DNA from: an uncultured Pseudomonadales bacterium
Lineage (GTDB): Bacteria; Patescibacteriota; Microgenomatia; UBA1400; PJMF01
NCBI GenBank assembly: GCA_964650185.1
Contig: CAZYRN010000001.1
Location: forward strand, 46,284 to 110,283
Direction of reading: 5' to 3'
DNA length: 64,000 bases
This document shows positions 17,937 to 36,300 of this stretch, one piece after another; the first letter of the stretch is position 1; the number at the start of each line of letters is the position of its first letter. A model generated the notes under the pieces. The model made no database searches and was not told the DNA's origin. It was given only the letters and a program-made list of their open reading frames with translations. A program made the translations under genes and the position numbers.

Positions 17937-18321
17937 GGTTAGATAGATTTCCAGCTAAATAATTAAGAACTTCCTCAATTTTAGCATTGAATTTCTCAGG
18001 TAAAGTTGCAATTGGTGCAGAAGTACCTGATTCTAAATTAGCACCATGCTGAAAAAGCGACTGAAAATATGCTTTTCGCTCATCTGCTGGCAGAACAAGC
18101 ATTGTTTGAATTGCTTCATTGCCTAATGCTTCAATTACCATTGATGAAAGTTCTAAACTGAGGAGATCATTTAATGTGTGGCGAAATTCTGCTTTCTCTT
18201 CAGGATTTGCTAACTCAGCAACAGCCTCTTCAATTTTTGCAGCATATTCTTGATCCAGCATCAGTTTAGAATCAACGACTGCCCTCAGCTCTACTGAAAT
18301 TTCTGGTCTCTGCTCATTCAT
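17923..18321 (-). CDS. Hypothetical acidic protein
   Basis: 132-aa ORF packed between ybeY and the next gene with overlapping ends. No recognisable motif. Confidence 0.4.
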   Translation of the reverse strand: MNEQRPEISVELRAVVDSKLMLDQEYAAKIEEAVAELANPEEKAEFRHTLNDLLSLELSSMVIEALGNEAIQTMLVLPADERKAYFQSLFQHGANLESGTSAPIATLPEKFNAKIEEVLNYLAGNLSNHDPN

Positions 18322-19267
18322 CTTGTACCTCCTCTGCTAACTGCTGGGTATACTCTAAACTAATGGGACCAAGCGGCACTTTATCTTCTGGATCGTCAAC
18401 AAAAAACAATAGCACCCGACCTCGAGAATTTGGACTCCAAATTTTACCTTCCCGAATCACTTCTGGAGACCCGCCAAACTGCTTCTGTACCCATTGAGCT
18501 GGACCGGCATCTCCCACTACCCCCACCACCGCCACCTTTTCAGCCGGATTAATGGCGACCATTTTGCGGAATTGGTAAAAAGGCTTAAGAATTTGATGAT
18601 TAGTATTCCAATCTGGTAGATATAGAGTCTGAACGGCAAAGTAGTATTTCTCCCTCATGATGGCTTTTTCTGTCAGCTCACCGCTCTCTGTAAACCAACC
18701 AAAAGCGCCGCGATTGGGAGCAATACCTGCCTCTAAATAAGCATCATGCTGACCCAATGTATCTCCTGGAAATCTAATTAAGTGCTGCTCACCGCCCATA
18801 ATCCCGATCGTATGATTAAGCCGGTGAGATTCAAGCTCGGCCGTGACTTCAAAGCCCAAGATCTCAGATAGCTGCTGTTCCAGATAAAGTTCGGTTTCTT
18901 GATCCATGTGACCAGGCGGCATTTTCACTATACTGTTCAGCTTGTTCATAATCTCAGCGTGTTCTTCAGCTGTGACTGCCGAGAGCAGCTCGTCTTCTTC
19001 TTTTTCTATTGCTCGGACTTGCTGAAATTGATAATTCTGCTGAGGACTATTTAAAACGACTGTGCCGGCTAATGAAGCAGCCGCTAGTAACTGCTGAGAG
19101 GTCATTTTTAAATCATCAAGCGTCAGATTGCGATCTTGCATCCACAATAACAGCTCACTGTGTTTTTCTTTAAATTCAGCTTCGACCTGTTGGTAGAGCT
19201 GGTTTAGTTTTGCAAGAGAGTTATTTCCAGCAGCTGTGACAGCATTGCTCATAGCACCATTATGCAA
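18314..19267 (-). CDS. Hypothetical protein (possible double-psi beta-barrel-like C-terminal domain)
   Basis: 317-aa ORF in an operon-like position. C-terminal KMVAINPAEKVAVVGVVGDAGP faintly resembles RlpA/3D-type folds. Weak. Confidence 0.35.
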   Translation of the reverse strand: MHNGAMSNAVTAAGNNSLAKLNQLYQQVEAEFKEKHSELLLWMQDRNLTLDDLKMTSQQLLAAASLAGTVVLNSPQQNYQFQQVRAIEKEEDELLSAVTAEEHAEIMNKLNSIVKMPPGHMDQETELYLEQQLSEILGFEVTAELESHRLNHTIGIMGGEQHLIRFPGDTLGQHDAYLEAGIAPNRGAFGWFTESGELTEKAIMREKYYFAVQTLYLPDWNTNHQILKPFYQFRKMVAINPAEKVAVVGVVGDAGPAQWVQKQFGGSPEVIREGKIWSPNSRGRVLLFFVDDPEDKVPLGPISLEYTQQLAEEVQDE

Positions 19268-20705
19268 CGAGTTGAGCTGATTTTTCTAGACGAGTTATTA
19301 TCTCGTCCTTGCCCAAGGCGTGAATGGTCTCAAAAAGAGGCGGCGAGACCTTGCTGCCAGTGGCAGCAATCCGCAACATCATAAAATATTGACCTTTTTT
19401 CCAGTCGTGTTGTTCTTGCAGCTGGCGAACAGATTGTTCTATAGCATCCACTGTCCACTCATCCAGCCTGTTTAAGGTTGCTACGGTCTCTCCCAGCTGG
19501 GCTTTAACTTGCTTCGCTGTAGATTTTTTGAGCAGTAAAGCTGGATCGGGAGAAATGTCACGGTAGAAAAAGTGAGTGAGCTCTTCGATATCGTTTAATA
19601 CTTCCAGTCTCTCATGAATCAGCGGTAAGATTAGTTCAGCTTTATCTCGAGGAAAGTCATCCGGATAAAACTTTGTTAGCTGCTGATCCAGTTCTGTTAA
19701 AGTCAACTTTCTAATGTAAACTCCGTTGAGCCAGCGCAGCTTTTGCAGATCAAAGATCACTGATTTGGCACTGATTCCAGCTGGATCAAACTCCTGAATG
19801 TATTCTTCCAAGGTTAACAGCTCCCGCTGATCCTGAGGAGTCCAACCTAAAATCATAAAGAAGTTCAGCATTGCCTCAGGTAAAAACCCTCTTTCCAAAA
19901 ATGAGCGGGCCGAAACTGTGCCTTTCCGCTTACTCATCTTGCCTTTGCCGTCAGGGTTTAAAAAGACAGGCAGATGAGTATAAATAGGAGGCTCCCAACC
20001 AAAAGCTTGATAAAGCAATATGTGCTTGGGAGTGGAACTAATCCATTCCTCACCTCTCATGATATGGCTAATCTTCATTAAATGATCATCCACTACCACC
20101 GCTAAATGATAGGTGGGGAAACCATCTGATTTCATTAAAACTTGATCATCAACTTCGCTGGAATGAAAAGTAATCTCACCTCTTATGAGATCGGTAAAAC
20201 TAATTTGCTGATCATCAGGCACTTTCAGTCTGATCACGTATGGCTCGCCTGCAGCCAACTTAGCTTGAACTTCCTCAGAGCCTAAATTTAAACAGTGCCG
20301 GTCATACTTGGGAGGAGTTTTAGCAGCGCGACTGGCTTCTCTTACTTCTTCTAGTCTTTCTTTTGAGCAAAAACAGTAATAGGCAGCACCTTTTTCGATT
20401 AACTCTTGAGCTTTTTCTTGATAAATATCCAATCTCTCCGACTGAACATATGGTCCATACTCGCCGCCAACATCAGGACCTTCATCCCAGCTTAAACCGT
20501 AGTCTTTAATAATCTGATAAATTTCCTCAACCGCACCCGGCACCAATCTCATCTGATCAGTATCTTCAATGCGCAATACAAACTTGCCACCATGTTTTTT
20601 GGCAAAAGCATAATTTTTCAAAAGAGTAGCCATGCTACCGACGTGGATATCGCCAGTGGGACTGGGAGCCATTCTGGTGCGAACGAGTTGATCCTGATTT
20701 GTCAT
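19260..20705 (-). CDS. gltX: Glutamyl-tRNA synthetase
   Basis: HIGH-type motif PSPTGDIHVGS and KMSK motif KMSKRKG. 481 aa. Confidence 0.9.
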   Translation of the reverse strand: MTNQDQLVRTRMAPSPTGDIHVGSMATLLKNYAFAKKHGGKFVLRIEDTDQMRLVPGAVEEIYQIIKDYGLSWDEGPDVGGEYGPYVQSERLDIYQEKAQELIEKGAAYYCFCSKERLEEVREASRAAKTPPKYDRHCLNLGSEEVQAKLAAGEPYVIRLKVPDDQQISFTDLIRGEITFHSSEVDDQVLMKSDGFPTYHLAVVVDDHLMKISHIMRGEEWISSTPKHILLYQAFGWEPPIYTHLPVFLNPDGKGKMSKRKGTVSARSFLERGFLPEAMLNFFMILGWTPQDQRELLTLEEYIQEFDPAGISAKSVIFDLQKLRWLNGVYIRKLTLTELDQQLTKFYPDDFPRDKAELILPLIHERLEVLNDIEELTHFFYRDISPDPALLLKKSTAKQVKAQLGETVATLNRLDEWTVDAIEQSVRQLQEQHDWKKGQYFMMLRIAATGSKVSPPLFETIHALGKDEIITRLEKSAQLVA

Positions 20706-20739
20706 GAGGTAATTATACCAAGCTAATTTGATTTCCGGT

Positions 20740-21849
20740 CTACAGATCAGCCTGAATGTAGGTCGGATCTAAGGCTGGTACATAACCCAAAAAGCCATGG
20801 TCACCTGAAAATACATAAATCGGCTGCAAATAAGACTGAGGTAGGTTAGATTCATAATAGCCCAAACTGACTTCTCTAATGACAGCTGTCTCCTGCTGAA
20901 CTACTCCCTGAGGGTCTACTCCCAACTGGGCAACATAACCCGCACCAGATTTGAGGATGTTCCAAGCCTCCTGAGCTGTACGCAGTGGATAAGTCTCAAT
21001 TTGTTCATAATCGATATTTTGATAGGTGTATTCCATCTCCATGACCGCATCCCTGCCTGAGAAACTGCCGCCTAAAATTGCGTGAATGGTGCCTTTGGTT
21101 CCTTCTGGGCCATACATGCGATACTGGCCATCTATGGGTTGTCTATTCAGATCAACTTGAATAAAGTTAGCATCTGAAAAACTCACCGCTTCTGTCAGCT
21201 CACCACCCACCGCTTTGAGATATTTAACTTCACCGGCGACGGTAGCCACATCAGCCGGCAATAGATTGGCTGCTGAAAGATAACCTTTGACTAACTGCAC
21301 CGCACCATACTCATCAGGCAGATTGGTTGCATTTAGCATCTCAGGCCGAGAAAGATAGTTGCTGGAAAGAGTAAAGTTTTGCGAGAAAATATCCATTTCG
21401 AGCTGCATATCTAAGGGTTGCGCCTTTTCCCAGCGATAGGTGTTGCTGTCTAGGATGCGAGGCTCAAAAACGAAGTTGTAGTTAGCGGCAATTTCTCGAG
21501 CCCGCTGGTCAGCCAATAGGCTAGGGGTGGCATTAATCATCAGAAAGACTTTGCTCCGATCAGAAAAGCTGGGCACTGTTCCAGTGGCTGTTTCTAAGAC
21601 ATAACTGCGCGGTCGATCAGACTCATCTTGAACGGGAAAATTGACGGCTGGCAGCTTACCAAAGCCAACCGTAGGAGGAGGAGGCGGTGGCGGATTTACA
21701 GATCTCCAAAAAGCAATAAATGAAGTGAGAAAAATCCTCCCTACTATTAAAGCCACTACTAGAATGCCACCATACTTCACGGCGATTCTAGCCATATGGG
21801 TAGTTTGGGATAAAGTTAGGCCGGTAGTAGAAGGGGGATTATTAGCCAT
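20740..21849 (-). CDS. Membrane-anchored extracytoplasmic protein with poly-proline linker (hypothetical)
   Basis: N-terminal TM segment (IAVKYGGILVVALIVGRIFL...) followed by PPPPPPP and a 300-aa domain with no recognisable motif. Confidence 0.4.
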   Translation of the reverse strand: MANNPPSTTGLTLSQTTHMARIAVKYGGILVVALIVGRIFLTSFIAFWRSVNPPPPPPPTVGFGKLPAVNFPVQDESDRPRSYVLETATGTVPSFSDRSKVFLMINATPSLLADQRAREIAANYNFVFEPRILDSNTYRWEKAQPLDMQLEMDIFSQNFTLSSNYLSRPEMLNATNLPDEYGAVQLVKGYLSAANLLPADVATVAGEVKYLKAVGGELTEAVSFSDANFIQVDLNRQPIDGQYRMYGPEGTKGTIHAILGGSFSGRDAVMEMEYTYQNIDYEQIETYPLRTAQEAWNILKSGAGYVAQLGVDPQGVVQQETAVIREVSLGYYESNLPQSYLQPIYVFSGDHGFLGYVPALDPTYIQADL

Positions 21850-21853
21850 AAGT

Positions 21854-22771
21854 TTATGATACCGAAAAATTCTCCCATCGGTACTGTCTAAATACCCACT
21901 CCATAATTTGCTCTGTATCTACATAACGATTTTGACTACCCAGCAAAACAATAATAATAGCTTTGCCATCTCTTTCTACTTGAGTAATTAAGGCTTCGCC
22001 AGCTAAATCTGTTGTACCGGTTTTAATCCCCACTACATCACTTCTGCCAATTAGCTGATTGGTGTTGTATAAGTTAAAAACAATCCTACCGCTGACATCG
22101 GTAATAATAGATTCTTCTTCATCCACTATGGTTCTGAAAAAATCATCTTTCATAAACTCTCTTGCCAACAGCGATAGCTCAAAAGCGGTCGTCTGATGAT
22201 CAAGTGCATCCAAGCCAGCGGGATTGGTAAATGAGGTTTGAGTTAAATTTAAAGCCTGAGCCTGCTGATTCATCTCCGTCACGAACTGAACGTAACCTTG
22301 CGGGTGGTGCTGGGCTAAAATATTTGCCGCATCATTGCCGGAACTAATCAGTAACGCTTTTAGTAATTCCTTGACAGTAAACTGACTGCCCACCGGAAAT
22401 CCAATCACATGACCAACTGAAGCTGAGCCGCTGCTAACAGTCATTATTTGATCTAGATCATAGTTCTTTCTGGCCACTAACGCTGTCATCAACTTAGTGG
22501 TTGAAGCTGGAGAAATAGGTTCATGAGCATGACGCTGGAGTAAAATACTGGCTGATTCAACGTCGATAACCGCAATAGAACGGGCAGAAACCGTCGCTAA
22601 GAGTTCTTCATCGCTCAAATCATCTGCCACCGCCACAGGTATGGGAGCAACTGCTTTTAAATTGACTGGAGTGCTGAGTTGCTGCAGCGGTACTGCAATG
22701 GCCACTGGGGTCATTAACACTATGGAAAATACTATCACTGCTAAATACTGATCAACTCTAAGCCTTGGCAC
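21854..22771 (-). CDS. D-alanyl-D-alanine carboxypeptidase (peptidase S11, PBP5-like)
   Basis: SxxK (ASTTKLMT), SxN (ISSGNDAAN) and KTG (IKTGTT) motifs in the canonical order. N-terminal signal/anchor. Confidence 0.85.
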   Translation of the reverse strand: MPRLRVDQYLAVIVFSIVLMTPVAIAVPLQQLSTPVNLKAVAPIPVAVADDLSDEELLATVSARSIAVIDVESASILLQRHAHEPISPASTTKLMTALVARKNYDLDQIMTVSSGSASVGHVIGFPVGSQFTVKELLKALLISSGNDAANILAQHHPQGYVQFVTEMNQQAQALNLTQTSFTNPAGLDALDHQTTAFELSLLAREFMKDDFFRTIVDEEESIITDVSGRIVFNLYNTNQLIGRSDVVGIKTGTTDLAGEALITQVERDGKAIIIVLLGSQNRYVDTEQIMEWVFRQYRWENFSVS

Positions 22772-22790
22772 AGCCTTATTTTAGTAAAAA

Positions 22791-24203
22791 TTACTCTTTA
22801 TTGATACTGGGTTTAATCTGCAAACCGAGCTCGTCTAGTTGTTCTTCAGCCACTGTTGAAGGTGCATCCATGACCGCTGTTCGGCCAGTTGATGTCATCG
22901 GGAAAGCAATTGACTCTTTAATCGATGTTTCTTGAGCCAGCACCATCACGTGACGATCCAGACCTAGGGCTATGCCGCCATGAGGGGGTGTTCCCACAGC
23001 AAATGCTTCTAACATATGACCAATGTTGGCTTCAATTTCCTCATCTGAGTAACCCATAATACGGAATGTTTGTCTCAGCACCTCTGGTTGATGGGCTCGA
23101 ATGCTGCCTCCGCCGACTTCATAGCCGTTACAGACCAGGTCATATTGCGTTGATAGTATCTGGTCAATGTTTTCACCTGCCAGATGATCTGCTAAAAACT
23201 CTGCTTTAGGCTGACTAAAAGGATTATGGGTGAAGGTCCAGCCACTGCGGCCATCAGCTACTTCAGCAGCATCACTGCGATCTACTTTTTTGAAGAAAGG
23301 AAAATCAACTACCCACGCAAAAGCCAATAAGCCCTGTTTCTTTTCGTCCTCAGTCCGAAAGTCAAACTTATCAGCTCCAAATTTTTCAATTGCTTCCTGG
23401 TAGGTAAATACGGGAAACTGCTGATCCTTAAGCTGGCCTCCGACAGTGGTGACGGCTTCTTTAACCATCTCCTCTACCGTCTGCATCACTTCTTCTCGAG
23501 ATACAAAGCTCATTTCTAAGTCGACTTGAGTATGTTCAAAACCGCGATCGGCTCGTAGATCCTCATCTCTGATGCAGCGGGCAAATTGAAAATACCGCTC
23601 AACCCCAGCTGTCATCAAGAGTTGTTTATACTGTTGTGGGCTCTGCGGTAGAGCATAAAACTTGCCGTGCTGAAAACGTGACGGCACAATAAAATCTCTC
23701 GCCCCTTCTTTGGTGGATTTTGTCAACAAAGGCGTCTCCACTTCCACAAATTCTCGTTTGTATAAAGCTTCACGCAAGGCACGAGAATAATCGGAACGAA
23801 GTTTCAGATTCTGTCTCATTCTGGAGCGACGTAAATCTAGATAGCGATATTTAAGCCGAGGTTCTTCACCAATCTCATAGCCATCACTATCTAGTTGAAT
23901 TGGTAATTCCTTGGATTTGTTGAGCACCTCATATTCAGCTACTTCAATTTCGACAGTGCCAGTGGCTAAATCAGGATTGATATTTCGCTCTGACCGATCT
24001 TTAACTAAACCAGTAATTTTTACTACCGATTCAACCGTCAACTCGCCCAGCATATTGACCCCCACACACTGTATTAAAGAAGTCCGATCTCTCAAATCAA
24101 TAAAAGTCACTTTGCCATGATCGCGCTTACTATCCACCCAGCCCATAACCGTGACGGTCTGGCCCGATAATGTAGGTGTATCAATAATCATGGTTCGTTT
24201 CAT
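22791..24203 (-). CDS. aspS: Aspartyl-tRNA synthetase, bacterial-type motifs but lacking the GAD insertion domain (470 aa)
   Basis: Motif 2 FARCIRDEDLRADRGFEHTQVDLEMSF and motif 3 GGGSIRAHQPEV...GLDRHVMVL. The region between them is about 130 aa shorter than in E. coli AspRS. Confidence 0.9.
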   Translation of the reverse strand: MKRTMIIDTPTLSGQTVTVMGWVDSKRDHGKVTFIDLRDRTSLIQCVGVNMLGELTVESVVKITGLVKDRSERNINPDLATGTVEIEVAEYEVLNKSKELPIQLDSDGYEIGEEPRLKYRYLDLRRSRMRQNLKLRSDYSRALREALYKREFVEVETPLLTKSTKEGARDFIVPSRFQHGKFYALPQSPQQYKQLLMTAGVERYFQFARCIRDEDLRADRGFEHTQVDLEMSFVSREEVMQTVEEMVKEAVTTVGGQLKDQQFPVFTYQEAIEKFGADKFDFRTEDEKKQGLLAFAWVVDFPFFKKVDRSDAAEVADGRSGWTFTHNPFSQPKAEFLADHLAGENIDQILSTQYDLVCNGYEVGGGSIRAHQPEVLRQTFRIMGYSDEEIEANIGHMLEAFAVGTPPHGGIALGLDRHVMVLAQETSIKESIAFPMTSTGRTAVMDAPSTVAEEQLDELGLQIKPSINKE

Positions 24204-24412
24204 CTAGCTCCTTAAATATATTTATAGCAAAAAACCCTCTTTCAACCACCCGCAGATGATCAAAAGAGGGTTTTAAATAAACGGTGCCACCTCTAATTTA
24301 ACTTCATTCCAGCTGTGATGGGCTTACCCAGCTTGGTTGCGACCCCAAGCAGCTCTCTCTAAGTCGAGAATTACCCGCTGTCAACGGATTCTAGAGCTGT
24401 TTTTTTTCTGGT
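24204..24412 (-). promoter_or_regulatory. T-box-like riboswitch leader upstream of aspS (Asp specifier GAC; reduced Stem I)
   Basis: On the minus strand the conserved T-box sequence AATTAGAGGTGGCACCG (plus 24282-24298) overlaps an antiterminator/terminator pair and is followed by the AAGGAG RBS and the aspS ATG. A candidate specifier GACA sits in a short hairpin loop (plus 24379-24382). The variable T-box base C is complementary to the G73 discriminator expected for tRNA-Asp. Confidence 0.55.
24228..24276 (-). terminator. Intrinsic terminator of the aspS leader (T-box terminator helix)
   Basis: 12-bp stem AAAACCCTCTTT / AAAGAGGGTTTT with about a 20-nt loop, followed on the minus strand by TTTTTTG, about 20 nt upstream of the aspS RBS. 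Confidence 0.55.
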
Positions 24413-24415
24413 GTA

Positions 24416-24444
24416 ATCGTAACATAGCAATTTTTACTTGACAA
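24416..24444 (-). promoter_or_regulatory. Candidate sigma70-type promoter for the aspS leader (TTGTCA-N17-TACGAT)
   Basis: -35/-10-like hexamers with 17-nt spacing on the minus strand. The opposite strand carries TTGACA-N16-TAAACT facing the divergent gene 24491. Confidence 0.35.
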
Positions 24445-24490
24445 GCTTAGAGAACTTAGTAAACTGCACCAAAAGTAGAATGAAATTATT

Positions 24491-25549
24491 ATGGACAGAA
24501 AATTTATCCCATCTACACCATTGGACAGAGTTTTCTTAGGCAATGGCAATGGTCAAACTATTACTAATCATGAGGTGCCACGATATCCAGAATATGATCT
24601 AGTTACATCTCCAAGTGAAATTAATCCTAGAAGTTTTGCTAAATCAGTTGAAACTTGGAACTCTTCTCGAATTCGAATATTAATGAAATTAGCTAGCTCC
24701 TGTTTAAATAATATTGACCCCAACACATATGCTTTGGTTTTAACCGGCTCTGATGCTCGAAGAGAGAAAGGGCCATACTCTCCATTTGAATTATTGGTTA
24801 TTGCTTCAGACAAAGGTGTTGCTGAATACATTAGGTCAACCATATTTACCAATTTATGTAAGAGAAATAGACGTAATTTATGGAATGAAATTGATCCAGA
24901 TATAGAAATAAAGATTATTGGAAAACAGAGAAAACATGATGAATATATCTCTGGATACTTAGGAGATAAGCTTCATCCATGGCCAGACAGAGTTTTAGCT
25001 GGTCAAATATTAGCTGGAAATCCAGACTTTCTACAAGAAGCAAGGTTGTCAACTGTTGATGAATTTATTCATTCAAGTTCTATTAGAAGAAGAATTAGAA
25101 GGAGACTTAGCGGTCTAATTCGCATTGTAGAGACAGGAGGTTTGAGAAATGAGCAAACACCCCGTCTCCATTTCGATGAAGAAATACTTTATTTTAATCC
25201 TGATCAATATGTTTTAGGTTTTAAACATAATATTATGAGACTTATTCAGGTAATTACTACTCTTCGACAATTAGAGTCTGAGGATTCAATTACTTCTAGA
25301 TTGGCCGTTGATACAAACACTATTAATAGACTTTCAGAGTTATTTGGTTCAGTAGCTCCCAGTTTATTAGAGGCTACTGCCGATGCCTATGCACTAGCAT
25401 TATGGTCATATCATGTTCAGCAGTGGAGGTATCAAAAGTATGAACAATCTAGCGAAGCTGCTTCTTTATATTTAGGAAAGAATCTTATTAAAATTGTGAC
25501 ATCGACGGTGTTATTTTTTGCAAATGAGGTGAGATCAACTGAGTTTTAG
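24491..25549 (+). CDS. Hypothetical protein with degenerate GlnD/GlnE-like nucleotidyltransferase motif; AT-rich orphan gene
   Basis: 352-aa ORF, markedly more AT-rich than its neighbours. LVLTGSDARREKGPYSPFELLVIA mimics the Pol-beta NTase GS-x9-SDIDLL motif, but with P-F-E replacing D-x-D. Confidence 0.35.
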   Translation: MDRKFIPSTPLDRVFLGNGNGQTITNHEVPRYPEYDLVTSPSEINPRSFAKSVETWNSSRIRILMKLASSCLNNIDPNTYALVLTGSDARREKGPYSPFELLVIASDKGVAEYIRSTIFTNLCKRNRRNLWNEIDPDIEIKIIGKQRKHDEYISGYLGDKLHPWPDRVLAGQILAGNPDFLQEARLSTVDEFIHSSSIRRRIRRRLSGLIRIVETGGLRNEQTPRLHFDEEILYFNPDQYVLGFKHNIMRLIQVITTLRQLESEDSITSRLAVDTNTINRLSELFGSVAPSLLEATADAYALALWSYHVQQWRYQKYEQSSEAASLYLGKNLIKIVTSTVLFFANEVRSTEF

Positions 25550-25564
25550 ACGAGGTAATATCAA

Positions 25565-27244
25565 TTATTTCTTTAGTTGATGAAGAATATCTACCACCCT
25601 CACTTGCAGAGATGTTCGATGACGCCACTCATTAATCTCTAGGACGCCAGCGATATCAACCTTATCTCCAGCCGACAGTTTTTGAGCCAACTCTCCTTTT
25701 CTCCAAGCTAAAAAGTTAATGGGCTGGACACTCTCGCCCACTCGACCTACCAACTTTAAGTGCTGCTTTTCCTTACCAACAGTCATCACTTCTAATAACT
25801 CAACCTCTTTGATCCCGAAAACTGGTTCTGGATTGCCGCTGCCAAATGGAGCCAGCCGCTGCACGGCATCCGCGGTAGCTAGAGTCAGCAGCTCTTCTGG
25901 CAAAACTATGTCAACCTCAAGTGATGGCTGAAGCAGACTTTGATCTATCTGCTCTTTAGCTAACTGCCTTAATTTAGTCGTTACTAGCTCTAATTTAGTT
26001 GTTTCAAAACCAAATCCCGCTGCCATGGGATGACCGCCAACTTCCAATAATTCTGCTTTAACCTGTCTAATTAACTCAATGATATTTACCCCAGGAATTG
26101 ATCTGGCTGAAGCTTTAACAGTTTTCTCACTAATACTCATCGCAATCGCTGGTTTATAAAACCTTTCAACTAAACGGCCGGCAATTAAACCAATCACACC
26201 CTCATGGTAATCCGCTGAAGCTGCGATAATAAGATGTTCTTCTCGCCACTCTTGACTATTTGACAGGGCATCAGCCATCATTTCATAGGTTAATTCTTGG
26301 CGCTGATTGTTAGTACTGCCCAGCAGCTCTGCCAATTCTGCTGCCCGACCAGCATTATTTGTCAAAACAAGTCTGAGAGCATCTAGACTATGACCCAGTC
26401 TACCCATTGCATTAATGCGTGGTGCAATAGCGTAACCGACAGTCTGACTAGTGATATCTTTTTGATTAATTCCGGCTTGACTCAACAATGCCAACAAGCC
26501 AGGTTTTTTGGACTTTTGCAGTTGGGCAAGACCATGATAAGCAAAACTACGATTAGCAGCTTTTAATAAAACCTGATCGGCAATGGTAGCAATGCCAGTC
26601 AAATCCAACTGATCATTAATATTTTGATCGAAGCTCCTTGCAAGCTGGTTGGCTAACATCCACGCCACGGTTGTGCCACATAATTGATCGGTATGAACAA
26701 CTGCTAAAGCCAGCGGTAGTTCTGCTTCAGGCTGATGATGATCAGTAATAATTAAATCAATGCCGGCGGCAGCGATTTGCTGAGCATGTTCGTGAGCAAC
26801 GATGCCATTATCAACCGTAATAATTAAGCGAGGCTGTTGAACAGCTAGTAAATCTGTTAAGGCGGCGGCTGATAAGCCATAACCATGCTTTTCCCGATGT
26901 GGAATAAAAGGCACAGCTTTGGCCTTTAATCGATAAAGAGTTTGCCATAAGACGGCTGTAGCACAAACACCATCCGCATCATAATCACCAAAAACAACAA
27001 TTTCCTCTTCATTTTTGATGGCCTGCTTAATCCGCTTTAGCGCCGTTTGTAGCTGCTGCTCATCCAATCCGACAGAGGTCAAACTTATTTTACTAGGATG
27101 GACAGGCTGAAAAAAATCATCTTCCTGATCTAATTCACGATTTTTCAGCAAAATAGTCATCAGCTCATCTAGGTGCTTTGGGACTTGCTCAGTTCTAATC
27201 TTCCAGTTCATGATGATGACAGTATAATAGAACTCGTATGTCAT
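25565..27244 (-). CDS. recJ: Single-stranded-DNA-specific exonuclease RecJ
   Basis: DHH motifs (VVFGDYDADGVCAT; IITDHHQPE) and the DHHA1-type C-terminal region. 559 aa. Confidence 0.9.
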   Translation of the reverse strand: MTYEFYYTVIIMNWKIRTEQVPKHLDELMTILLKNRELDQEDDFFQPVHPSKISLTSVGLDEQQLQTALKRIKQAIKNEEEIVVFGDYDADGVCATAVLWQTLYRLKAKAVPFIPHREKHGYGLSAAALTDLLAVQQPRLIITVDNGIVAHEHAQQIAAAGIDLIITDHHQPEAELPLALAVVHTDQLCGTTVAWMLANQLARSFDQNINDQLDLTGIATIADQVLLKAANRSFAYHGLAQLQKSKKPGLLALLSQAGINQKDITSQTVGYAIAPRINAMGRLGHSLDALRLVLTNNAGRAAELAELLGSTNNQRQELTYEMMADALSNSQEWREEHLIIAASADYHEGVIGLIAGRLVERFYKPAIAMSISEKTVKASARSIPGVNIIELIRQVKAELLEVGGHPMAAGFGFETTKLELVTTKLRQLAKEQIDQSLLQPSLEVDIVLPEELLTLATADAVQRLAPFGSGNPEPVFGIKEVELLEVMTVGKEKQHLKLVGRVGESVQPINFLAWRKGELAQKLSAGDKVDIAGVLEINEWRHRTSLQVRVVDILHQLKK

Positions 27245-28749
27245 TAAAACTAAGGCCTGAAGTTGAGTACATTTTAACGACCTTGCATCAAGCTGGCTAT
27301 GAAGTATTTCTAGTCGGCGGAGCAGTCAGAGATTTGCTGTTGGATAAAGACTTTAAAGATTACGACTTTACGACCAATGCCCGTCCAGAACAAATTAAAG
27401 AGCTTTTTCCGGAAAGCTACTATGAGAATGAGTTTGGCACCGTTTCCATTACTCATCCAGAACTTTTAAAACAAATGGGGGTTGATGAAGAAGCAGTGGG
27501 GTTAGCTCGGGTCGATGCTAAATCTGACTCCACTTTAATTGATCTAGCTCAAGCCAGCAAGATTCATCACTCGCTTCAAGTGCCTGAAGAATTGAAAACA
27601 GCTACTAACTCAATTGCTGTTGATCATGAGAACGCTTATCAATACTTTCCTGACTTTGAGATTACTACCTATCGTTCTCAAGAGATCTACGAAGATTTTC
27701 GTCATCCCGACCCAACCCAACTAGAATGGGGTGAATCAATTGAGGAAGATTTAGCCAGAAGAGACTTTACCATTAATGCCCTAGCTCTTAATCTTCAGGG
27801 TGAAATTATTGATCCTTATCAAGGACAAGCAGATTTAGAGGCTAAACTGATTAAAACAGTTGGTGAACCCGACGAGCGCTTTAAAGAAGATGCTTTGAGA
27901 ATGCTCAGGGCGATCCGTTTTTCTGTTCAGCTAGGATTTGTTATCGATCCAGCCGTACTTCAGTCAATTAAAGCACATAGTCATTTAGTTGCTAAGATAA
28001 GCTCAGAAAGAATTAGAGATGAATTTTTTAAGATACTCAGCAGTTCACAACCAAAAGCTGGTTTGCAGCTGCTTGATGAAACGGGCTTGTTATCTGAATT
28101 CTTGCATGAACTAGCAGCTACAAAGTGAGTTGATCAGGGCGGTCATCATACTACTGATGTCTGTACTCATAGCGTGGATGCCTTAGCCAACTGCCCAAGC
28201 TCAGATCCGATTGTAAAACTGGCCACCTTGCTTCATGACATTGGTAAACCAGCTACTTATCAACTGAGAAATGGTGAGATCACTTTTTATAATCATGAAA
28301 TTGTTGGATCGAGGATCGCGGATCGCATTGGTCAACGATTGCACTTATCAAAGAGAGAGCTACGGCGGCTGTTTATCTTAGTCAGGCATCATATGTTCTA
28401 CTACCAGCCCGAAAACAGTGATGCAGCCATTCGCCGATTTATGACCCGAGTTGGTTTAGAAAATATTGATGATATTTTAGCCTTACGAGAAGGTGACCGG
28501 CTGGGCAGCGGAGTTAGAAAAACCAGCTGGAGATTAGAGGAAATGAAAGAACGGATCGTTGGTCAGCTCAACCAGCCTATGGCTGTGACTGATCTAGCAA
28601 TTTCTGGTCATGATTTAATGGCTCAGTTTGATCTAAAACCCGGCCCTTGGATTGGCGCAGTTTTAGATAAATTATTAGAGGAAGTGCTAGACAATCCTGA
28701 GTTAAATACTAAAGAACAGTTGCTAAAACTAGCTCAAGAGCTAGTTTAG
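27238..28749 (+). CDS. cca: CCA-adding tRNA nucleotidyltransferase (head/neck/body plus HD domain); reading frame interrupted by one in-frame TGA at 28126-28128
   Basis: N-terminal LVGGAVRDLLL plus DxD-type NTase head. The C-terminal HD domain (GGHHTTDVCTHSVDAL ... LLHDIGKP) is split across two same-frame ORFs (27238..28128 and 28174..28749). The HD metal-binding motif straddles the TGA. Confidence 0.8.
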
Positions 28750-28766
28750 TTTTTCAATGAAATATA

Positions 28767-29669
28767 CTAATGTTGGCGCCGGCGGCGAGATTTGATTTTT
28801 TGAGCTAACTCATCCCAAAACAGCAGTAACGGGGCGGCAATAAATGTGGAAGAGTAAGTGCCAGTTATGGCGCCAATTAATAACGCCACCGCAAACCACC
28901 GAATGGTATCTCCGCCTAACAAAGACAAAGCCACGAGCATGATAATAATTGTGACCGAGTTATTAATGGAACGACTAAGTGTTTCTATGACCGCCGCATC
29001 GACTACCGTTTCAGTTTCAACTTTGACATGTTTGCGTTTCAACTCTCTAATTCGATCAAAAACAACAATTGTGTCATGAACTGAAAACGACAGAGTTGTT
29101 AAAAGAGCTGTCACAAATAAAATATCTACCTCGATACCGGCAAACCAGCCCAACAGACTGAAAATGCCTAATAAAATCAGCGAGTCATGGAACATAGCAA
29201 GAATGGCTGCGACACCAAACTTAATCTCATCAAACTGCGTCCAGACATAAATCATTATGAGAGTGGCGGCAATTGCGACCGCCATTAAAGTTTTCATCAA
29301 CAGCTCCCGTCCCAAAGCAGGCCCAACAGTTTCAAATCTCAGCTCTTCCACCTCGCCATACTTAGTGGTAATGCTTTCCATGACGAGATTCTTTTGTTCA
29401 TTTGGCATCTCCTTACCTTTTAAAATCAGTTGATTTGAACCAGATTGCTGGACTGAATCCAGCTGATAAACATCATTTAAAACCGCTTTTAATTCGTCTT
29501 GTGTAAGCTGAACATCTTCATCAACTTGAATAAATCTTACCTCTAACAGAGAGCCGCCGGTAAAATCTATCGCTGGCTTAAGACCAAATAAAATTAGCGA
29601 AACTAGACCCGGGATGATAAAGAGCAGTGAAATACCAACATACAGCCACCGCCACTTCATTAAATTCAT
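28767..29669 (-). CDS. secF: Protein translocase subunit SecF
   Basis: 300-aa polytopic protein, N-terminal MNLMKWRWLYVGISL...IDFTGGSLLEVRF (SecF periplasmic domain). Lies downstream of secD with a 4-nt overlap. Confidence 0.9.
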   Translation of the reverse strand: MNLMKWRWLYVGISLLFIIPGLVSLILFGLKPAIDFTGGSLLEVRFIQVDEDVQLTQDELKAVLNDVYQLDSVQQSGSNQLILKGKEMPNEQKNLVMESITTKYGEVEELRFETVGPALGRELLMKTLMAVAIAATLIMIYVWTQFDEIKFGVAAILAMFHDSLILLGIFSLLGWFAGIEVDILFVTALLTTLSFSVHDTIVVFDRIRELKRKHVKVETETVVDAAVIETLSRSINNSVTIIIMLVALSLLGGDTIRWFAVALLIGAITGTYSSTFIAAPLLLFWDELAQKIKSRRRRQH

Positions 29670-31063
29670 CTTTTACCTCCAATGGCTGCCACTTTTATTT
29701 TCGGCTCACTTAAAAATAGTCTCATTAAGGTCCTGGTAACAACAACACCGGTAAAAAGGCCGATCAACACACCAACTAATAATGTGACACCAAATCCTCT
29801 CACCAAGCCGCTGGTGGCTAAAAATGGAAAGTTAACCGGATTTATCAAAACTAAAGCAGTCATAATCGTGGCTATGTTAGCATCTTTAATTGAGTCCCAG
29901 GCTCTGCCAAAGCCCAGCTTCATGGCTCTTTTCCAGGGTTTGCCCAACCTCAATTCTTCCTTCATTCTTTCAAAAATAAGGATATTGGCATCCACCGCCA
30001 TTCCCACCGACAACAACAGGCCAGCAATCCCCGGCAAAGTGAGGGTAACACCCAGCACTTTGTAAGCAGCGACCGTAATAATTCCATAAATAATTAAAGC
30101 CCAGTCCGCAATTAAGCCTTTCCAGCCATAAAGCAGGATCATGAACAACATAACTAGACCAATGCCGATTAAACCAGCTCTAATGCTCTCAGTGACGGCT
30201 TGCTGACCGATGCTCGCACCCAGTTGGCGCTGTTCCAAAACTTGAATAGGTACGGGCAGAGCTCCGGCATTTAACTGAATAGCCAGCTGCTGAGCCTGCT
30301 CTAAGGTAAAACCGCCTGTCATGACCGCTCGGCCATCTGAAATCGGCGTGTTAATCTGTGGCATAGCCACTGGGTATTCATCAATAAAAATAGCCAAAAC
30401 CTGTCCCACATTAGCTTGAGTAATCTCAGCAAACAGCTCTCGTCCTTCATCATTAAACTCCATCGCAATCACTGGTTCATTGGTTTGCGGATCAAATTGG
30501 ACGGAAGATCGTTTCAGTTGCTTGCCAGTTAACGCTGTTGGTTCGAACTGCTCAAAAAATGTCACTGCTGAGGTAGTGGCTTGCGCAATTACTTCAGGAT
30601 CATTAGTTTGCAGTCTAAAATCAAGTTGAGCTGTTTGACCAACCAGTCTCAAGGCCTGATTAGGATCACTGACACCTGGCAGATCAACTAAAATTCGGTG
30701 GCTCTCTCCAACTTGAGAAGTCGTCACGGAGGGCTCATTAATTCCGTACAAATCAACTCGCCGCAAAATAATTTCCCGAGCACTTTCCAAGGCTGTTTCC
30801 CGATCACTAGATTCAATCTCTGACATATCAGCTTGCAGTACCACCTGCATCCCGCCTTGAATATCCAAGCCTTGCTTTAACTGAAAGTCATAACTAAATT
30901 GTTTGCCAAATAAGTTAAAAGTAGGCGCTGGAACTATGACTTCACGGTCAAGATTGAGGCCAAATTGATTAAACTTCAAGTGAAATTGTCGCGGCAGAGC
31001 AATATAGAGAGAGGCGATCGTCAAGATAATAATAAAAATAAAAATCTGATAGGTTCGATTCAT
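29666..31063 (-). CDS. secD: Protein translocase subunit SecD
   Basis: GLDIQGGMQVVLQADMSE and the C-terminal SecD/SecF TM bundle. 465 aa. Confidence 0.9.
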   Translation of the reverse strand: MNRTYQIFIFIIILTIASLYIALPRQFHLKFNQFGLNLDREVIVPAPTFNLFGKQFSYDFQLKQGLDIQGGMQVVLQADMSEIESSDRETALESAREIILRRVDLYGINEPSVTTSQVGESHRILVDLPGVSDPNQALRLVGQTAQLDFRLQTNDPEVIAQATTSAVTFFEQFEPTALTGKQLKRSSVQFDPQTNEPVIAMEFNDEGRELFAEITQANVGQVLAIFIDEYPVAMPQINTPISDGRAVMTGGFTLEQAQQLAIQLNAGALPVPIQVLEQRQLGASIGQQAVTESIRAGLIGIGLVMLFMILLYGWKGLIADWALIIYGIITVAAYKVLGVTLTLPGIAGLLLSVGMAVDANILIFERMKEELRLGKPWKRAMKLGFGRAWDSIKDANIATIMTALVLINPVNFPFLATSGLVRGFGVTLLVGVLIGLFTGVVVTRTLMRLFLSEPKIKVAAIGGKR

Positions 31064-31099
31064 ATTGACTCTCTATTTTGGCAGGATGGAGCAGAAATT

Positions 31100-31768
31100 T
31101 TAGAGATTAGGCTGTTGGCGCTCAACAAACTCGTCTTCACCGCCAATTACCATAATCCGGCTGTTGTATAACACGTCCATAATAAATGGATCTCGCCGGG
31201 CTTTTCTAAAATTATACTCTTCAACATCAAAGACAGTGACTCTAATCTCTCGATCTAAAGCCTCTTCTTCCTCTTTAATAAGTGCTTCTAGTTCACTCAA
31301 CACCACATCGCCAACTACCAAAATATCTACCTCATCTTGTCTCACCGGCTTGCGCCGAATAAATCTGCCGGAAAACATGACAAACTCCAGTGTTCCCAGT
31401 TTGCGACGGAACTTGCGAATTTTTAATCCCAACCCAGTGCTTTTGACAATCATCTGCTGCAACTCTTGATAGTAAAGATAACGGTCATTGAGAAAATAAT
31501 AGAGCCGATTACCGCGCTGCTCACTTTTCAGCAAGCCATAGTCAAGCATTTTATCTAATTCTCGGCGAACAGCGTTAATCTCTTCTTTGATTTCTCGAGT
31601 GATCTGTCTGACGTAATACATCTCTTCAGGATTGGTAAAAAAGAGTTCCATCATCTTTACCCTAACCCGAGAGATCATAAAGTCTTGTAATGAAGTCATA
31701 CTGTACTCAAATTGTAAGTTACTACCGGCTGATATGCAAGGCGTACCAGACACTTGTCTAGCTGACAA
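31100..31768 (-). CDS. Hypothetical winged-helix-like DNA-binding protein (start uncertain; internal ATGs at codons 24/31/38)
   Basis: YYVRQITREIKEEINAVRRELDKMLDYGLLKSEQRGNRLYYFLN resembles a wHTH. The C-terminal half is charged with VDILVVGDV. No confident family call. Confidence 0.3.
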   Translation of the reverse strand: MSARQVSGTPCISAGSNLQFEYSMTSLQDFMISRVRVKMMELFFTNPEEMYYVRQITREIKEEINAVRRELDKMLDYGLLKSEQRGNRLYYFLNDRYLYYQELQQMIVKSTGLGLKIRKFRRKLGTLEFVMFSGRFIRRKPVRQDEVDILVVGDVVLSELEALIKEEEEALDREIRVTVFDVEEYNFRKARRDPFIMDVLYNSRIMVIGGEDEFVERQQPNL

Positions 31769-31774
31769 CCTAGG

Positions 31775-32962
31775 CTAATATTCAACAGTAGTCACATTAT
31801 TTACCACAGAAATCCAGGTTAAGCCTCGAGCCATGGGAATGTTGGTGCCTCGGCTATCGACGAATTGAATGGGGCTGGTGCGAGTTTTCTTACTCCAAGT
31901 TGCTTCTATCACTTCACCATTTTTGAAGATGAGAGCATCACCAGTACCAATGGTTTCATAGAGCATATGCTTCACTTCATTAATGGGACCTTTTTCAACA
32001 GTTTTTAAGACTACGACATTTTTAGCCATGATTTGTTTTTCCGAATTTTGATCAATGTGAGGCTCTCCAGCCATCTGGCGCAGATAACTGTTTGTTTCCG
32101 GGTCATACTCCCAAGAAACAGCATAGTCATTGTAACCACTCCAAAAGTCATAAGAGATGCTAGTGACGCTGCCGTCAGGCTGATCACCGTTTTCAAATGT
32201 CCAAGGAGTGAAACCGTCTTGCCACGCATCCCCGCCTACCATGTTAAAGCCGACTTTTCTCTCTGGTGAGACATTGGTCCAGCCTCTTTCCTCGCCAACT
32301 TCCCACAGTTTTTCAGTACTGGTCACCATGGTATGCTCAGTCGCGATAGTTTTGCCAGGGACTCGATTGTAATCACGCACAAAAGTTGGGTAACCAATGG
32401 AGAACTGGTTTAAGTCATTTTCACCTGCCCAGCCATAAGTATTGATTTGTCCTAAAGCATCTGATGGTCCTGGGACATTGGCACCGCCGACATGAGCATA
32501 CAGAGGCTGGTTAAAACCTGAGGCCCAGTCAACAAAATAGGTACGAGCAGATCTGATTGGAGCGAGAGTGGTATCAATTTTTTGCACATCGCAGTAGAAC
32601 ATCCCCATAAATCTAGTCACACCACCTTCAGCTACTGCTTCAAAAACGACATCTGCATCACCCAAGCCGGCTTGTGGTCGAGCTTCTGGATGATTTTCAA
32701 TCATCACAGCTAACGGCCGTCTTTTCTCCCAAGCTTCTCTTTCCACAGCGGTATAAAACTGTCCATTTAGCGGACACTCTTGATCTCTTGGTGCATTAGG
32801 ATCAATATCCAGCAAAGCACCAAGCAAAGTCTCTTCCTCAGTTTCACTGTTATCAATATTAGCTGTACCTTGCTGATCGCCTAAATAAGAAAAGGCACCA
32901 AATGATACCGCTGCTGAGACAATGTATAAGACTAATGCTAGTAGAAGATTTTTTCGTTTCAT
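31775..32962 (-). CDS. DUF3048-family secreted/lipoprotein-like protein (YerB-like)
   Basis: Start reassigned to the ATG at 32962, preceded by AAAGGAG. MKRKNLLLALVLYIVSAAV signal/anchor. Core AVMIENHPEARPQAGLGDADVVFEAVAEGGVTRF matches the DUF3048 signature. Confidence 0.55.
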   Translation of the reverse strand: MKRKNLLLALVLYIVSAAVSFGAFSYLGDQQGTANIDNSETEEETLLGALLDIDPNAPRDQECPLNGQFYTAVEREAWEKRRPLAVMIENHPEARPQAGLGDADVVFEAVAEGGVTRFMGMFYCDVQKIDTTLAPIRSARTYFVDWASGFNQPLYAHVGGANVPGPSDALGQINTYGWAGENDLNQFSIGYPTFVRDYNRVPGKTIATEHTMVTSTEKLWEVGEERGWTNVSPERKVGFNMVGGDAWQDGFTPWTFENGDQPDGSVTSISYDFWSGYNDYAVSWEYDPETNSYLRQMAGEPHIDQNSEKQIMAKNVVVLKTVEKGPINEVKHMLYETIGTGDALIFKNGEVIEATWSKKTRTSPIQFVDSRGTNIPMARGLTWISVVNNVTTVEY

Positions 32963-32999
32963 AATTAGGCCGCTCCTTTTGGCAATAGTAACAGTTTTA

Positions 33000-33281
33000 T
33001 CAGAGCTGAAAGTATAACGCAATTAGTATTCCAAAAACTACTAGAGATGCAACTATGGTCCGCCATAAATCACGCTTGATCTGTCTTGGTTCTTGAGACA
33101 ATAAGCCTATTACTGGACTTTCTTTGATAGCGTCTCGACTATTTGCAGCTGCTTTAATACTTTTTGGGGCTGATTTTTTCGAGCTGGAACTTTTTTTCTG
33201 TGGAGATAAGCTGTAACTAGTTTCCTCAAGTCTTCTCAATTGAGCAGCTAGTTTTTCTTCTTTAGTTCTTCTAATTCCCAT
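33000..33281 (-). CDS. Small basic membrane protein (hypothetical)
   Basis: 93 aa with a Lys/Ser-rich N-terminus and a single C-terminal TM (LWRTIVASLVVFGILIALYFQL). Confidence 0.3.
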   Translation of the reverse strand: MGIRRTKEEKLAAQLRRLEETSYSLSPQKKSSSSKKSAPKSIKAAANSRDAIKESPVIGLLSQEPRQIKRDLWRTIVASLVVFGILIALYFQL

Positions 33282-33311
33282 ATTGTTCCTTATTCATAAA
33301 CATGTGAGTTT

Positions 33312-34412
33312 TTAGCCAAAAAAGACGCTAATAATATCTTTAATCGAGATAATCACAATAAAAGCCAAGATAAAAATATAACCAAAGTAGTTGCCATATT
33401 CTTCAACTTTCTCTAACTTTTGTTTACCAAAAATCTTTTTCAGCGTAATAAAGAGCGCCCGGCCGCCATCTAAGGCAGGGATGGGCATAATATTAATTAT
33501 AGCTAAATTAACGGATAACATACCGGCAAAAGCCAGCACAGACAGTGCCCCTTCCGCCACAATGCCGCTATCACTTGCTTGAGCGACAATTCTGATCGGA
33601 CCAGCTACTGTGTCTGGGACGCTACCTTTAAAAAGAATATCCCCAACCATTTGACCTAAACTAACTACTATCAGCTTACCTAACCAAATAGCTTGAACTA
33701 AACCAAACCAGATGGCTCTAAAAGGCTTTTCATACCAGGGATATTCGAGATAAATAGCAGATTCAAAACTCACTCCTAGTGCACCCTCATTAGCCGGCGT
33801 CTCCTCTGCTGTTCTTATATAAACTTCATATTTTTGCTCAGTGGGGTCACATTGATCAACCGAGTCCGGCTGACATTCTCCAGACGTAATTAAGGTAATT
33901 TCTTCACCTCGGTATTGACCAATCTCAGCGATAGCTTCATCAGTGGTATAAATTTTGATGGTTTCTTCAGCCGTTTCAATGCCCGTAATGGCCACATTAG
34001 TGGGTATTCCTGCTGCAGCGGCCGGAGAATTAGGCGCCACTGTCGAAATGCGTGGCTGGTCAATTGGTGTCGGCACACCCGAGATGGTGAAAACCAGCGC
34101 AAATGCTAAAATACCAAACACAAAGTTTACGGTCGCACCCGCCAGAATCACAATTAACTGTTGGTAGGAAGGCCGTTGATAAAATTCGCCTGTGACATTA
34201 TCTTCACCCTTAATTTTGACAAAGCCGCCAAAGGGAATCCAGTTCAATGAGAAGAGGGTTTCTTTCCACTTAAAAAGCTTAAGTGCTCGTGGAGGATAAC
34301 CCACTCCAAACTCCTCAACCTTCATCTTAGCCCAGCGGGCAGTAAAAAAATGACCCAGCTCATGAATAATGACCAAAAAAGATAGCACAAGGATAAAAAT
34401 AAGTGCAGCCAT
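33312..34412 (-). CDS. rseP: Site-2 protease RseP/M50 zinc metalloprotease with PDZ domain
   Basis: HELGH zinc motif at residues 17-21, PDZ-like middle region and a C-terminal TM. Sits next to frr, as is usual. Confidence 0.85.
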   Translation of the reverse strand: MAALIFILVLSFLVIIHELGHFFTARWAKMKVEEFGVGYPPRALKLFKWKETLFSLNWIPFGGFVKIKGEDNVTGEFYQRPSYQQLIVILAGATVNFVFGILAFALVFTISGVPTPIDQPRISTVAPNSPAAAAGIPTNVAITGIETAEETIKIYTTDEAIAEIGQYRGEEITLITSGECQPDSVDQCDPTEQKYEVYIRTAEETPANEGALGVSFESAIYLEYPWYEKPFRAIWFGLVQAIWLGKLIVVSLGQMVGDILFKGSVPDTVAGPIRIVAQASDSGIVAEGALSVLAFAGMLSVNLAIINIMPIPALDGGRALFITLKKIFGKQKLEKVEEYGNYFGYIFILAFIVIISIKDIISVFFG

Positions 34413-34417
34413 AATAG

Positions 34418-34972
34418 TTATACCGCCAGCAACTCTTGCTCTTTCTTAGCTTCGATCGCTTCCAACTGCTCGATGTATTCCTGAGTCAGAGTATTTAGTT
34501 TTTCTAAATCACGGCGAATATCATCTTCACTGATATTTGACTCGCCCTCTTGATCTTCGATTTTCTGCTTAATATCAGAACGGATGTTGCGCAGCATCAC
34601 TTTGCCGCCCTCAATCTTTTTCTGGAGCAGCTTCACCATCTCTAAACGTCTTTCCTCTGTTAACTGCGGAATGGCGATGCGGATAATATCGTTATCTACC
34701 ACCGGACTTAAATTCAAGCCAGAGCTGGCGATAGCCTTCTCGATACTTTCAATCACTGACCGGTCCCAAGGTTTAATGATAATTAAATTTGGGTCGGGGG
34801 TAGAGATATTGGCCAACTCATTCACCTTCATTTCACTTCCATAAGCTATCACTTTGACTGGATCCAGCAGTTGGGCGGAGGCTTTGCCGGTTCTTAAAGT
34901 CGCAATATCTTGATTAACGTGATCAAGTGTGGCTTGTGACTTTTGGTTGAATAGCGAAAAATCATATGTCAT
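34418..34972 (-). CDS. frr: Ribosome recycling factor
   Basis: 184 aa. The sequence is colinear with Frr (…LRTGKASAQLLDPVKV…LPQLTEERRLEMVKL…). Confidence 0.95.
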   Translation of the reverse strand: MTYDFSLFNQKSQATLDHVNQDIATLRTGKASAQLLDPVKVIAYGSEMKVNELANISTPDPNLIIIKPWDRSVIESIEKAIASSGLNLSPVVDNDIIRIAIPQLTEERRLEMVKLLQKKIEGGKVMLRNIRSDIKQKIEDQEGESNISEDDIRRDLEKLNTLTQEYIEQLEAIEAKKEQELLAV

Positions 34973-34993
34973 ATATCTTGATTATAAACGATT

Positions 34994-35884
34994 TTGTATA
35001 CTAATTGGAGTATGCAGCCATTTTTATACATTTACACTTTACATCGATCGCTGACATCCGGCGCCTCCTATCTGGGTGTTGTTAAAAATAAACTTTGGTT
35101 TAGTATCAGGTATTTCCTGATTAGTTTATCAATCTTAGGCATTATCTCAGGGGTATTCTTTGTTGACCGTGTCTGGCTACCCCTGAAAACCACGGCACAG
35201 GTGGAGTTGCTGAACTTAGCCCATTATTATCCGAGTGACATAATTGTTTCCTGGAACAATCAAACATTGCTTATTAATTCTGAAGCACCTATCCAGGTGC
35301 CATATCCCAAAAGCATGCCGCTGCAGGATTTAATACCTCATCATTTATTGACAATAACTGAGCCTGGTCGCTCAGCAGCCGACTTTGTTACTGAGTCAGG
35401 TAATAGTTCATTTCTAGTAGCCGACAGTCAGCACTTGTTCATCAATAATTTAAATGGACGCTGGCGACAGCTGCCATTAACTGAGATTTTATCTGAGCCA
35501 TTTACACTGACTGCTGATAACATCGACCAGCAGATTGGACAGCTCAATCAGCAGCTTAGTTGGTTTTTTAACGGATTTAGCTTGATAATCATCATTATTT
35601 ACCCAATTTATTTAATCAGCACTGTTTTTTGGCAAACTGTTATAGAGTCTATTTTGCTATATTTTGTTCTTAAAATAAACCATACTGCTCAAGAATACCT
35701 ACCTACTTTTAAAATCGCCCTACATATTGCTGTCACTGCCGCAATACTTCACGAAGTCACAGGTTATCTCTATCCCAACCATGGCTACCCAATTTTTAAT
35801 TTGACTTTCTGGTCGATAATGATCTTTATGCTCTGGTCACTGAATTATGCCCTTAAGACCGGCATGCTAGACGAGCGTGAGTAA
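34994..35884 (+). CDS. Hypothetical polytopic membrane protein
   Basis: 296 aa with an N-terminal anchor, an extracytoplasmic region and four C-terminal TM helices. Confidence 0.4.
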   Translation: MYTNWSMQPFLYIYTLHRSLTSGASYLGVVKNKLWFSIRYFLISLSILGIISGVFFVDRVWLPLKTTAQVELLNLAHYYPSDIIVSWNNQTLLINSEAPIQVPYPKSMPLQDLIPHHLLTITEPGRSAADFVTESGNSSFLVADSQHLFINNLNGRWRQLPLTEILSEPFTLTADNIDQQIGQLNQQLSWFFNGFSLIIIIIYPIYLISTVFWQTVIESILLYFVLKINHTAQEYLPTFKIALHIAVTAAILHEVTGYLYPNHGYPIFNLTFWSIMIFMLWSLNYALKTGMLDERE

Positions 35885-36289
35885 CAAACCTACTAAACCT
35901 AAAATAACCCAACAAGTATTGAGCAGCTGATATAAAATCGCCCCTTCATCTGCTCCCAGCCAACTAATATTTCTAAATAAAGGAGGTTCATATTCTTTCT
36001 GTGAAACTTGGTGCGTAATCCAATAAACTACCTCATATCCGCTTCTTATCACCAAAAAGATTAGTAAATGTCTCAAGATATTTAGCGGAGAAATAAAGTT
36101 AAATGCCACCGCAGAAACAAACCAAAAGGGAGCTAAGATCACCCCGTCTCCCCAAACAAAGATTCCCAGCCAGCTTAATCCAGGAGTATCGGTATAAAAC
36201 TGGTTTGATTTGGCAAATCTAAGTGAGAAATAAAAGATGATTAGAGCAAAAAGAGCGAGAAAAATTGATAATATATTTATGAGTGACAT
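35867..36289 (-). CDS. Hypothetical small polytopic membrane protein
   Basis: 140 aa with 4 predicted TM helices. It is the last gene of the minus-strand string 41873->35867. Confidence 0.4.
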   Translation of the reverse strand: MSLINILSIFLALFALIIFYFSLRFAKSNQFYTDTPGLSWLGIFVWGDGVILAPFWFVSAVAFNFISPLNILRHLLIFLVIRSGYEVVYWITHQVSQKEYEPPLFRNISWLGADEGAILYQLLNTCWVILGLVGLLLTLV

Positions 36290-36300
36290 TAAAGGTTGGT

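Follow-up and report, generated by a model that had tools for sequence, protein, structure and literature searches.

An in-frame TGA in a cca-type tRNA nucleotidyltransferase gene of a Patescibacteria genome is one of six clustered substitutions private to the deposited record

Positions 27238..28749 (+ strand) of the DNA analyzed here (a stretch of 64,000 nucleotides, termed the window) carry a cca-type class-II tRNA nucleotidyltransferase gene with an HD/HDIG domain. In the deposited record this gene is interrupted by an in-frame TGA at codon 297 (positions 28126..28128, + strand); in every other assembly it is intact and has a chain length of 503 aa. The TGA is not an isolated point change but one of six clustered transversions, all private to this record. 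Where the initial annotation read a single point mutation, there is a damaged or erroneous patch. The TGA is probably a sequencing or assembly artefact in one deposited MAG.

The interrupted open reading frame

The upstream open reading frame (27238..28128, + strand) has a chain length of 296 aa and closes on the TGA at 28126–28128. The frame reopens past this codon and runs to a TAG at 28747–28749. Pfam places the HD domain and the tRNA_NucTran2_2 tail in the downstream part of the gene (28129..28749, + strand), for which the public record lists a product of its own, 191 aa long with a GTG start at 28174. The two open reading frames are in one frame (28174 − 27238 = 936 = 3 × 312) and the TGA is the sole separator between them. 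Translation across the stop reads ...ELAATK-stop-VDQGGHHTTDVCTHSVDAL...LLHDIGKP, and the joined product is 503 aa. Nowhere else in the window do two long open reading frames in one frame match, as halves, a single protein family.

The stop is at the position of the first G in the segment G-V-x-Q-G-G-H-H. An alignment with 120 homologues shows this segment to be highly conserved (G 84%, V 96%, Q 100%, HH 100%), with Gly at the stop codon position in the 84%. The common frame, the Pfam domains on the joined product (see below) and the homologues thus confirm the earlier claim of a cca gene split at a conserved glycine by a single in-frame TGA. The reading frame into the tRNA-binding region of body and tail is broken in the deposited record and uninterrupted in nine other contigs.

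Comparison with other assemblies

Contigs covering the region were found through those that encode the 503 aa cca cluster and those that encode the window's own SecF. Nine independent contigs from the same or a near-identical strain cover the gene: ERZ27247346 (ENA), JGI 3300028603, SRR8449813, SRR7082982, SRR22572395, SRR8925800, SRR7082976, SRR7082971 and SRR7082984. Codon 297 is GGA (Gly) in all nine and each encodes an intact 503 aa protein. The proposed origin of the TGA from GGA is confirmed by these contigs.

Window positions 1..60741 are identical to the 90.8-kb contig SRR7082982_186 (Logan), save at eight sites. At two of them, 23939 and 23943, the window shows transitions that are also found in other strains and represent ordinary polymorphism. 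The remaining six are all in cca, span 233 bases (28106..28338, + strand) and are private to the deposited record; the alternative base is present at all six sites in nine out of nine covering contigs. In SRR7082976, a contig of 6.1 kb matches the window over its length at every position but the six patch sites. Outside of the patch, the other 60.5 kb compared with SRR7082982_186 contain no private change at all, and this excludes gradual pseudogene decay or strain divergence as the source of the stop.

The six changes are C>A at 28106 (P290H), G>T at 28126 (G297stop), G>T at 28134 (E299D), G>T at 28164 (W309C), T>G at 28174 (L313V) and C>A at 28338 (synonymous). Each is a G↔T or A↔C substitution, a class typical of miscalls in four-colour Illumina data; five lie within 69 nt and all six within 233 nt. 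The protein is altered by five out of six. Residues P290 and W309 are invariant in 120/120 homologues, the residue at position 297 is Gly in 84% and that at position 313 is Leu in 83%. Five protein-altering changes, with two at invariant residues and one a stop, display the pattern of unselected noise.

The substitution class also sets the gene apart from its surroundings. Relative to one related contig (L001), cca has seven differences, the six private ones and a variant at 27529 that is shared between strains. All seven are G↔T or A↔C, as against only 3 of the 33 strain differences in the flanks, 23 of which are transitions (Fisher p = 6e-6 for cca versus flank). In recJ, next to cca, 14 of the differences between strains are synonymous and 6 non-synonymous; the other three differing flanking genes have too few differences for a comparison of this type.

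Among approximately 15 billion proteins searched, the 296 aa and the 191 aa product each occur once, on a single contig from NCBI with a length of 159,547 bp, evidently that of the deposited MAG from which the window derives. Restoring five residues in the window protein gives P0122, the repaired protein, which is present on five contigs. Pattern scans that allowed either allele were carried out with species-representative genomes and JGI metagenome contigs; the TGA allele was absent from these and only the intact JGI allele was found. A paper search shows JGI 3300028603 to be cited in municipal landfill studies.

Family relationships of the joined protein

The joined product displays, in order, the Pfam domains PolyA_pol head (PF01743, 110 bits, cut-off 23), PolyA_pol_RNAbd (PF12627, 70.6 bits, cut-off 22), HD (PF01966) and tRNA_NucTran2_2 (PF13735). 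The class-II motifs LVGGAVRD, DYDFT, RRDFTINA and EDALRMLR can be read in the sequence; motif A (GGxVRD...DxD), motif B (RRD) and motif D (EDxxR) of the Pol-beta head are thus all present. The nearest NCBIfam models are CCA tRNA nucleotidyltransferase equivalogs, yet scores are under the cut-offs: 272.2 against 290 for NF009814, and 265.5 against 438.8 for TIGR02692. Membership in the class-II tRNA nucleotidyltransferases is clear at the family level, and the joined protein is presumably CCA-adding rather than CC-, A- or poly(A)-adding. The assignment of the gene as a class-II CCA-type nucleotidyltransferase with an HD domain is supported.

The protein is closest to the class-II bacterial CCA-adding enzymes with HD/HDIG domains (the actinobacterial-type TIGR02692, and PRK13299), having an identical domain order and motifs A, B and D. 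Its best structural relatives are bona fide CCA-adding enzymes, those of Planococcus (6IBP) and Geobacillus (1MIV), with E-values from ~1e-49 to 5e-50. It differs from the class-II CCA-adding enzymes in having about 70 extra residues between motifs A and B, and these are common to all the Patescibacteria homologues. A search with the joined protein yielded thousands of full-length homologues from Patescibacteria (Microgenomates, Pacebacteria and Woesebacteria neighbours), together with a cluster at 99% identity whose 503 aa members are intact.

The 296 amino acid product and the tRNA gene

Residues 140–294 of the protein align with residues 78–229 of the 404 residues of the Geobacillus enzyme 1MIV. 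By this alignment the stop would correspond to approximately residue 232 of 1MIV, at about the junction of neck and body. In class-II CCA enzymes the catalytic core is in the head and neck, and the tRNA-binding site is formed from the body and tail (PMC8563995). With a stop at the neck/body junction, the fragment would end before the body and tail and so have no tRNA-binding site. The initial annotation had the 296 aa product encompassing head, neck and body, and perhaps active; this has to be revised to head and neck only. The fragment would be without the HD domain and the PF13735 tail and would bear P290H. To judge from the alignment, it is unlikely to have retained CCA-adding activity on tRNA.

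The sole tRNA gene in the window encodes tRNA-Glu(CTC) (42974..43047, + strand). CAT, and not CCA, follows the discriminator A, which bears out the earlier observation that this tRNA gene is without an encoded CCA. Because of this, cca should be essential. No compensating cca paralogue is present within the window.

Origin of the six substitutions

The six changes are private, clustered and of one substitution class, and the gene is intact elsewhere. This points to a cause that is technical and not mutational. The organism's real cca gene would then be intact and encode a normal 503 aa CCA-type enzyme with Gly (GGA) at codon 297, and about 230 bases of consensus would most likely derive from poor short-read data, e.g. 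from one read, or one pair of reads, of low quality. The bad consensus may alternatively stem from gap filling or polishing. In such data G and T, and likewise A and C, would each be miscalled for the other.

The commonest miscalls with the HiSeq are A↔C (29.2%) and G↔T (26.8%), because a laser is shared by the two dyes of each pair (Minoche et al. 2011, PMC3334598); the AC/GT confusion is likewise stated by Pfeiffer et al. 2018 (PMC6053417). Wrong calls cluster densely in low-quality read tails, where the error rate is 6.5%, and an error context after G or C has been reported (Minoche et al. 2011, PMC3334598). The patch spans approximately one read or read pair, which fits dense miscalls in read tails. 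The preceding base is G or C at five out of six patch sites, and this may be taken as weak support for miscalls. The patch thus resembles short-read consensus errors from Illumina dye cross-talk in several properties: it consists of A↔C and G↔T changes only, is about one read length, is found in one assembly, and is blind to codon position and conservation. The probability that six out of six changes fall in the miscall class (approximately 56% of Illumina errors) is ~0.03 under the error model. The probability calculated from the natural flank spectrum is far below this, ~6e-7.

Typical short-read errors differ from the patch in that they are normally outvoted at good coverage. With good coverage, assemblers normally reject a path with five or six errors, and the 159-kb length of the contig suggests that coverage was decent, which argues against an artefact. 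Also counting against an artefact is that five out of six changes are G:C>T:A, a signature of real oxidative (8-oxoG) damage.

The same five changes are those that 8-oxoG mutagenesis predicts, and they favor a real and very recent null allele, which is a possible but doubtful explanation. According to this, a single localized multi-hit event in one subpopulation gave rise to the six transversions and knocked out cca, and the assembler followed that haplotype; oxidative damage in a cluster, or error-prone synthesis during repair of a damaged patch, could be such an event. The variant bases stand in the public record, and the stop and radical replacements fit unselected mutation as well as they fit error. 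Polymorphism in the source population, at 23939/23943 and in a 1.18-kb segment that varies (both described below), shows that minor haplotypes do exist. However, the T>G change does not fit 8-oxoG, and G>T together with C>A on one strand requires hits on both strands. The allele is absent from the nine other assemblies, several of which belong to the same run series, and with no other private change in 60.5 kb it could not have arisen by gradual decay. The expected essentiality of cca, with a tRNA gene that is without CCA and with no cca paralogue in the window, also speaks against a null allele.

It is very unlikely that a genuine mutation shower inactivated cca in a natural lineage of the Microgenomates group (Patescibacteria) that persists. 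If there were such a persistent null lineage, an organism with a reduced genome would live without its own CCA-adding enzyme, e.g. by means of a host-supplied or an alternative nucleotidyltransferase. If the patch is real, it would be an unusual case in which several clustered hits knocked out an essential gene. Under either leading reading, consensus artefact or recent null allele, there is no new biological mechanism.

Recoding and read-through

A full-length enzyme could also be produced if the TGA were decoded as Gly (code 25), Trp (code 4) or selenocysteine, or by programmed read-through. The TGA is exactly at a conserved Gly codon, and UGA is the leakiest stop codon. Code 25 (UGA = Gly) is used by the Gracilibacteria and Absconditabacteria (SR1), whose usual position is within the same candidate phyla radiation or close to it, and a TGA at a conserved Gly in a Patescibacteria genome has a superficial likeness to this code. 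Genomes with code 25, however, have TGA throughout their genes. With translation table 11, 58 open reading frames tile 94% of the first 62.4 kb of the window (~19,556 codons), and no other in-frame TGA is present in these approximately 19,500 codons. The 58 open reading frames end on TAA (36), TAG (16) and TGA (6). Each of the five others that end on TGA has a back-up stop 1–30 codons downstream, and these five support the earlier statement that TGA otherwise serves as a terminator. The open reading frame structure of the window and the stop codon tally, with one in-frame TGA in 58 open reading frames, thus rule out code 25 and code 4.

Phylogenetic comparison is also against a conserved or programmed read-through, as the stop is not kept: nine out of nine near-identical contigs have GGA at this codon, and the same strain therefore has GGA elsewhere. 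In 80 related Patescibacteria genomes there is no in-frame stop in cca and all have a sense codon at the site; Gly is found in 48 of these, with all four GGN codons used. Residues homologous to codon 297 are Gly, Asn, Glu, Ala, Arg and Asp, and Cys is not listed in either set of homologues. A SECIS-like fold was not found after the TGA (positions 28120–28200, z = +0.99, where 173 of 200 shuffled sequences have an equal or better fold), nor was there an Rfam match in the RNA that follows it. Thus selenocysteine is rejected: there is neither a fold nor an Rfam match, and the homologues have Gly and not Cys. A read-through product would, in addition, still bear P290H and W309C. Decoding of the TGA as an amino acid is highly improbable. 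The initial annotation had left a nonsense lesion, a sequencing error and a read-through site side by side; error and lesion both remain, and read-through or recoding is excluded.

The tight clustering of the changes might suggest that the patch was rewritten, either by a diversity-generating retroelement or through gene conversion with a diverged copy as donor; this hardly merits consideration, as there is no natural donor, with H290, C309 and the stop found in none of 120 homologues. The window contains no second copy of the patch or template repeat (the best stray matches are 11–16 nt, at chance level), and the ancestral bases at the patch sites are C, G, G, G, T and C. With no template repeat in the window and with changes not confined to adenines, a retroelement target is rejected. 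Recoding and targeted diversification in all their forms are, taken together, very improbable.

A TGA at a conserved Gly in a genome from the candidate phyla radiation invites a story of code 25 or of read-through, and caution is called for. Independent assemblies of the same strain expose this TGA as a lesion in one record amid substitutions of the miscall type. The split annotation (296 + 191 aa) should not be cited to argue that Patescibacteria have a truncated CCA enzyme or one without HD, that they have lost cca or that they recode TGA.

Neighboring loci and strain variation

The longest recJ open reading frame (25565..27244, 559 aa) overlaps the start of cca, which is on the opposite strand, at 27238..27244. 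Gene calls for recJ on related contigs give 544–548 aa. The true recJ start is probably internal, with recJ and cca divergent and separated by a spacer of approximately 26 nt.

The two linked transitions at 23939 and 23943 lie within a tRNA synthetase gene (22791..24203) and are a genuine shared polymorphism: C..T is found in the window and in contig L006, and T..C in contigs L001, L005 and L007. This shared polymorphism shows that several closely related strains coexist in the samples.

Between the aspartyl/asparaginyl-type tRNA synthetase gene and recJ there is a 1.18-kb segment (24402..25585). The window and contigs L005 and L006 have it, whereas L001 and L007 have 26 bp in its place; it thus represents a strain-variable insertion or deletion. 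Clear junction repeats were not seen at the segment. Its GC content is lower (0.387) and it has one open reading frame (24491..25549, + strand) of 352 aa, with sub-threshold matches to a DUF294 putative nucleotidyltransferase (E = 0.0065) and to PADLOC PDC-S09 (E = 0.026). As a substitute nucleotidyltransferase this open reading frame was rejected: its matches are sub-threshold only and it is also present in strains with an intact cca.

Four consecutive open reading frames of 530–561 aa are found at 7208..13783 (− strand), adjoining a GT2 (6424..7203) and a GT4 (5374..6420) gene. A PMT_2 glycosyl/mannosyltransferase-like match is found for at least one of them (8810..10495), and the four look like tandem paralogues that encode large membrane glycosyltransferases.

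Downstream of the tRNA-Glu gene, the region 43050..46000 has a GC content of 0.35–0.38 and contains methyltransferase-like open reading frames as well as others with no assigned function. tRNA genes are common integration sites, and this region may be a small island. An open reading frame of 1592 aa at 53249..58027 (− strand) displays matches to Big_13 and fn3-type repeats, with a GC content down to 0.375 over its 5′ part, and probably encodes a large surface or adhesin-like protein.
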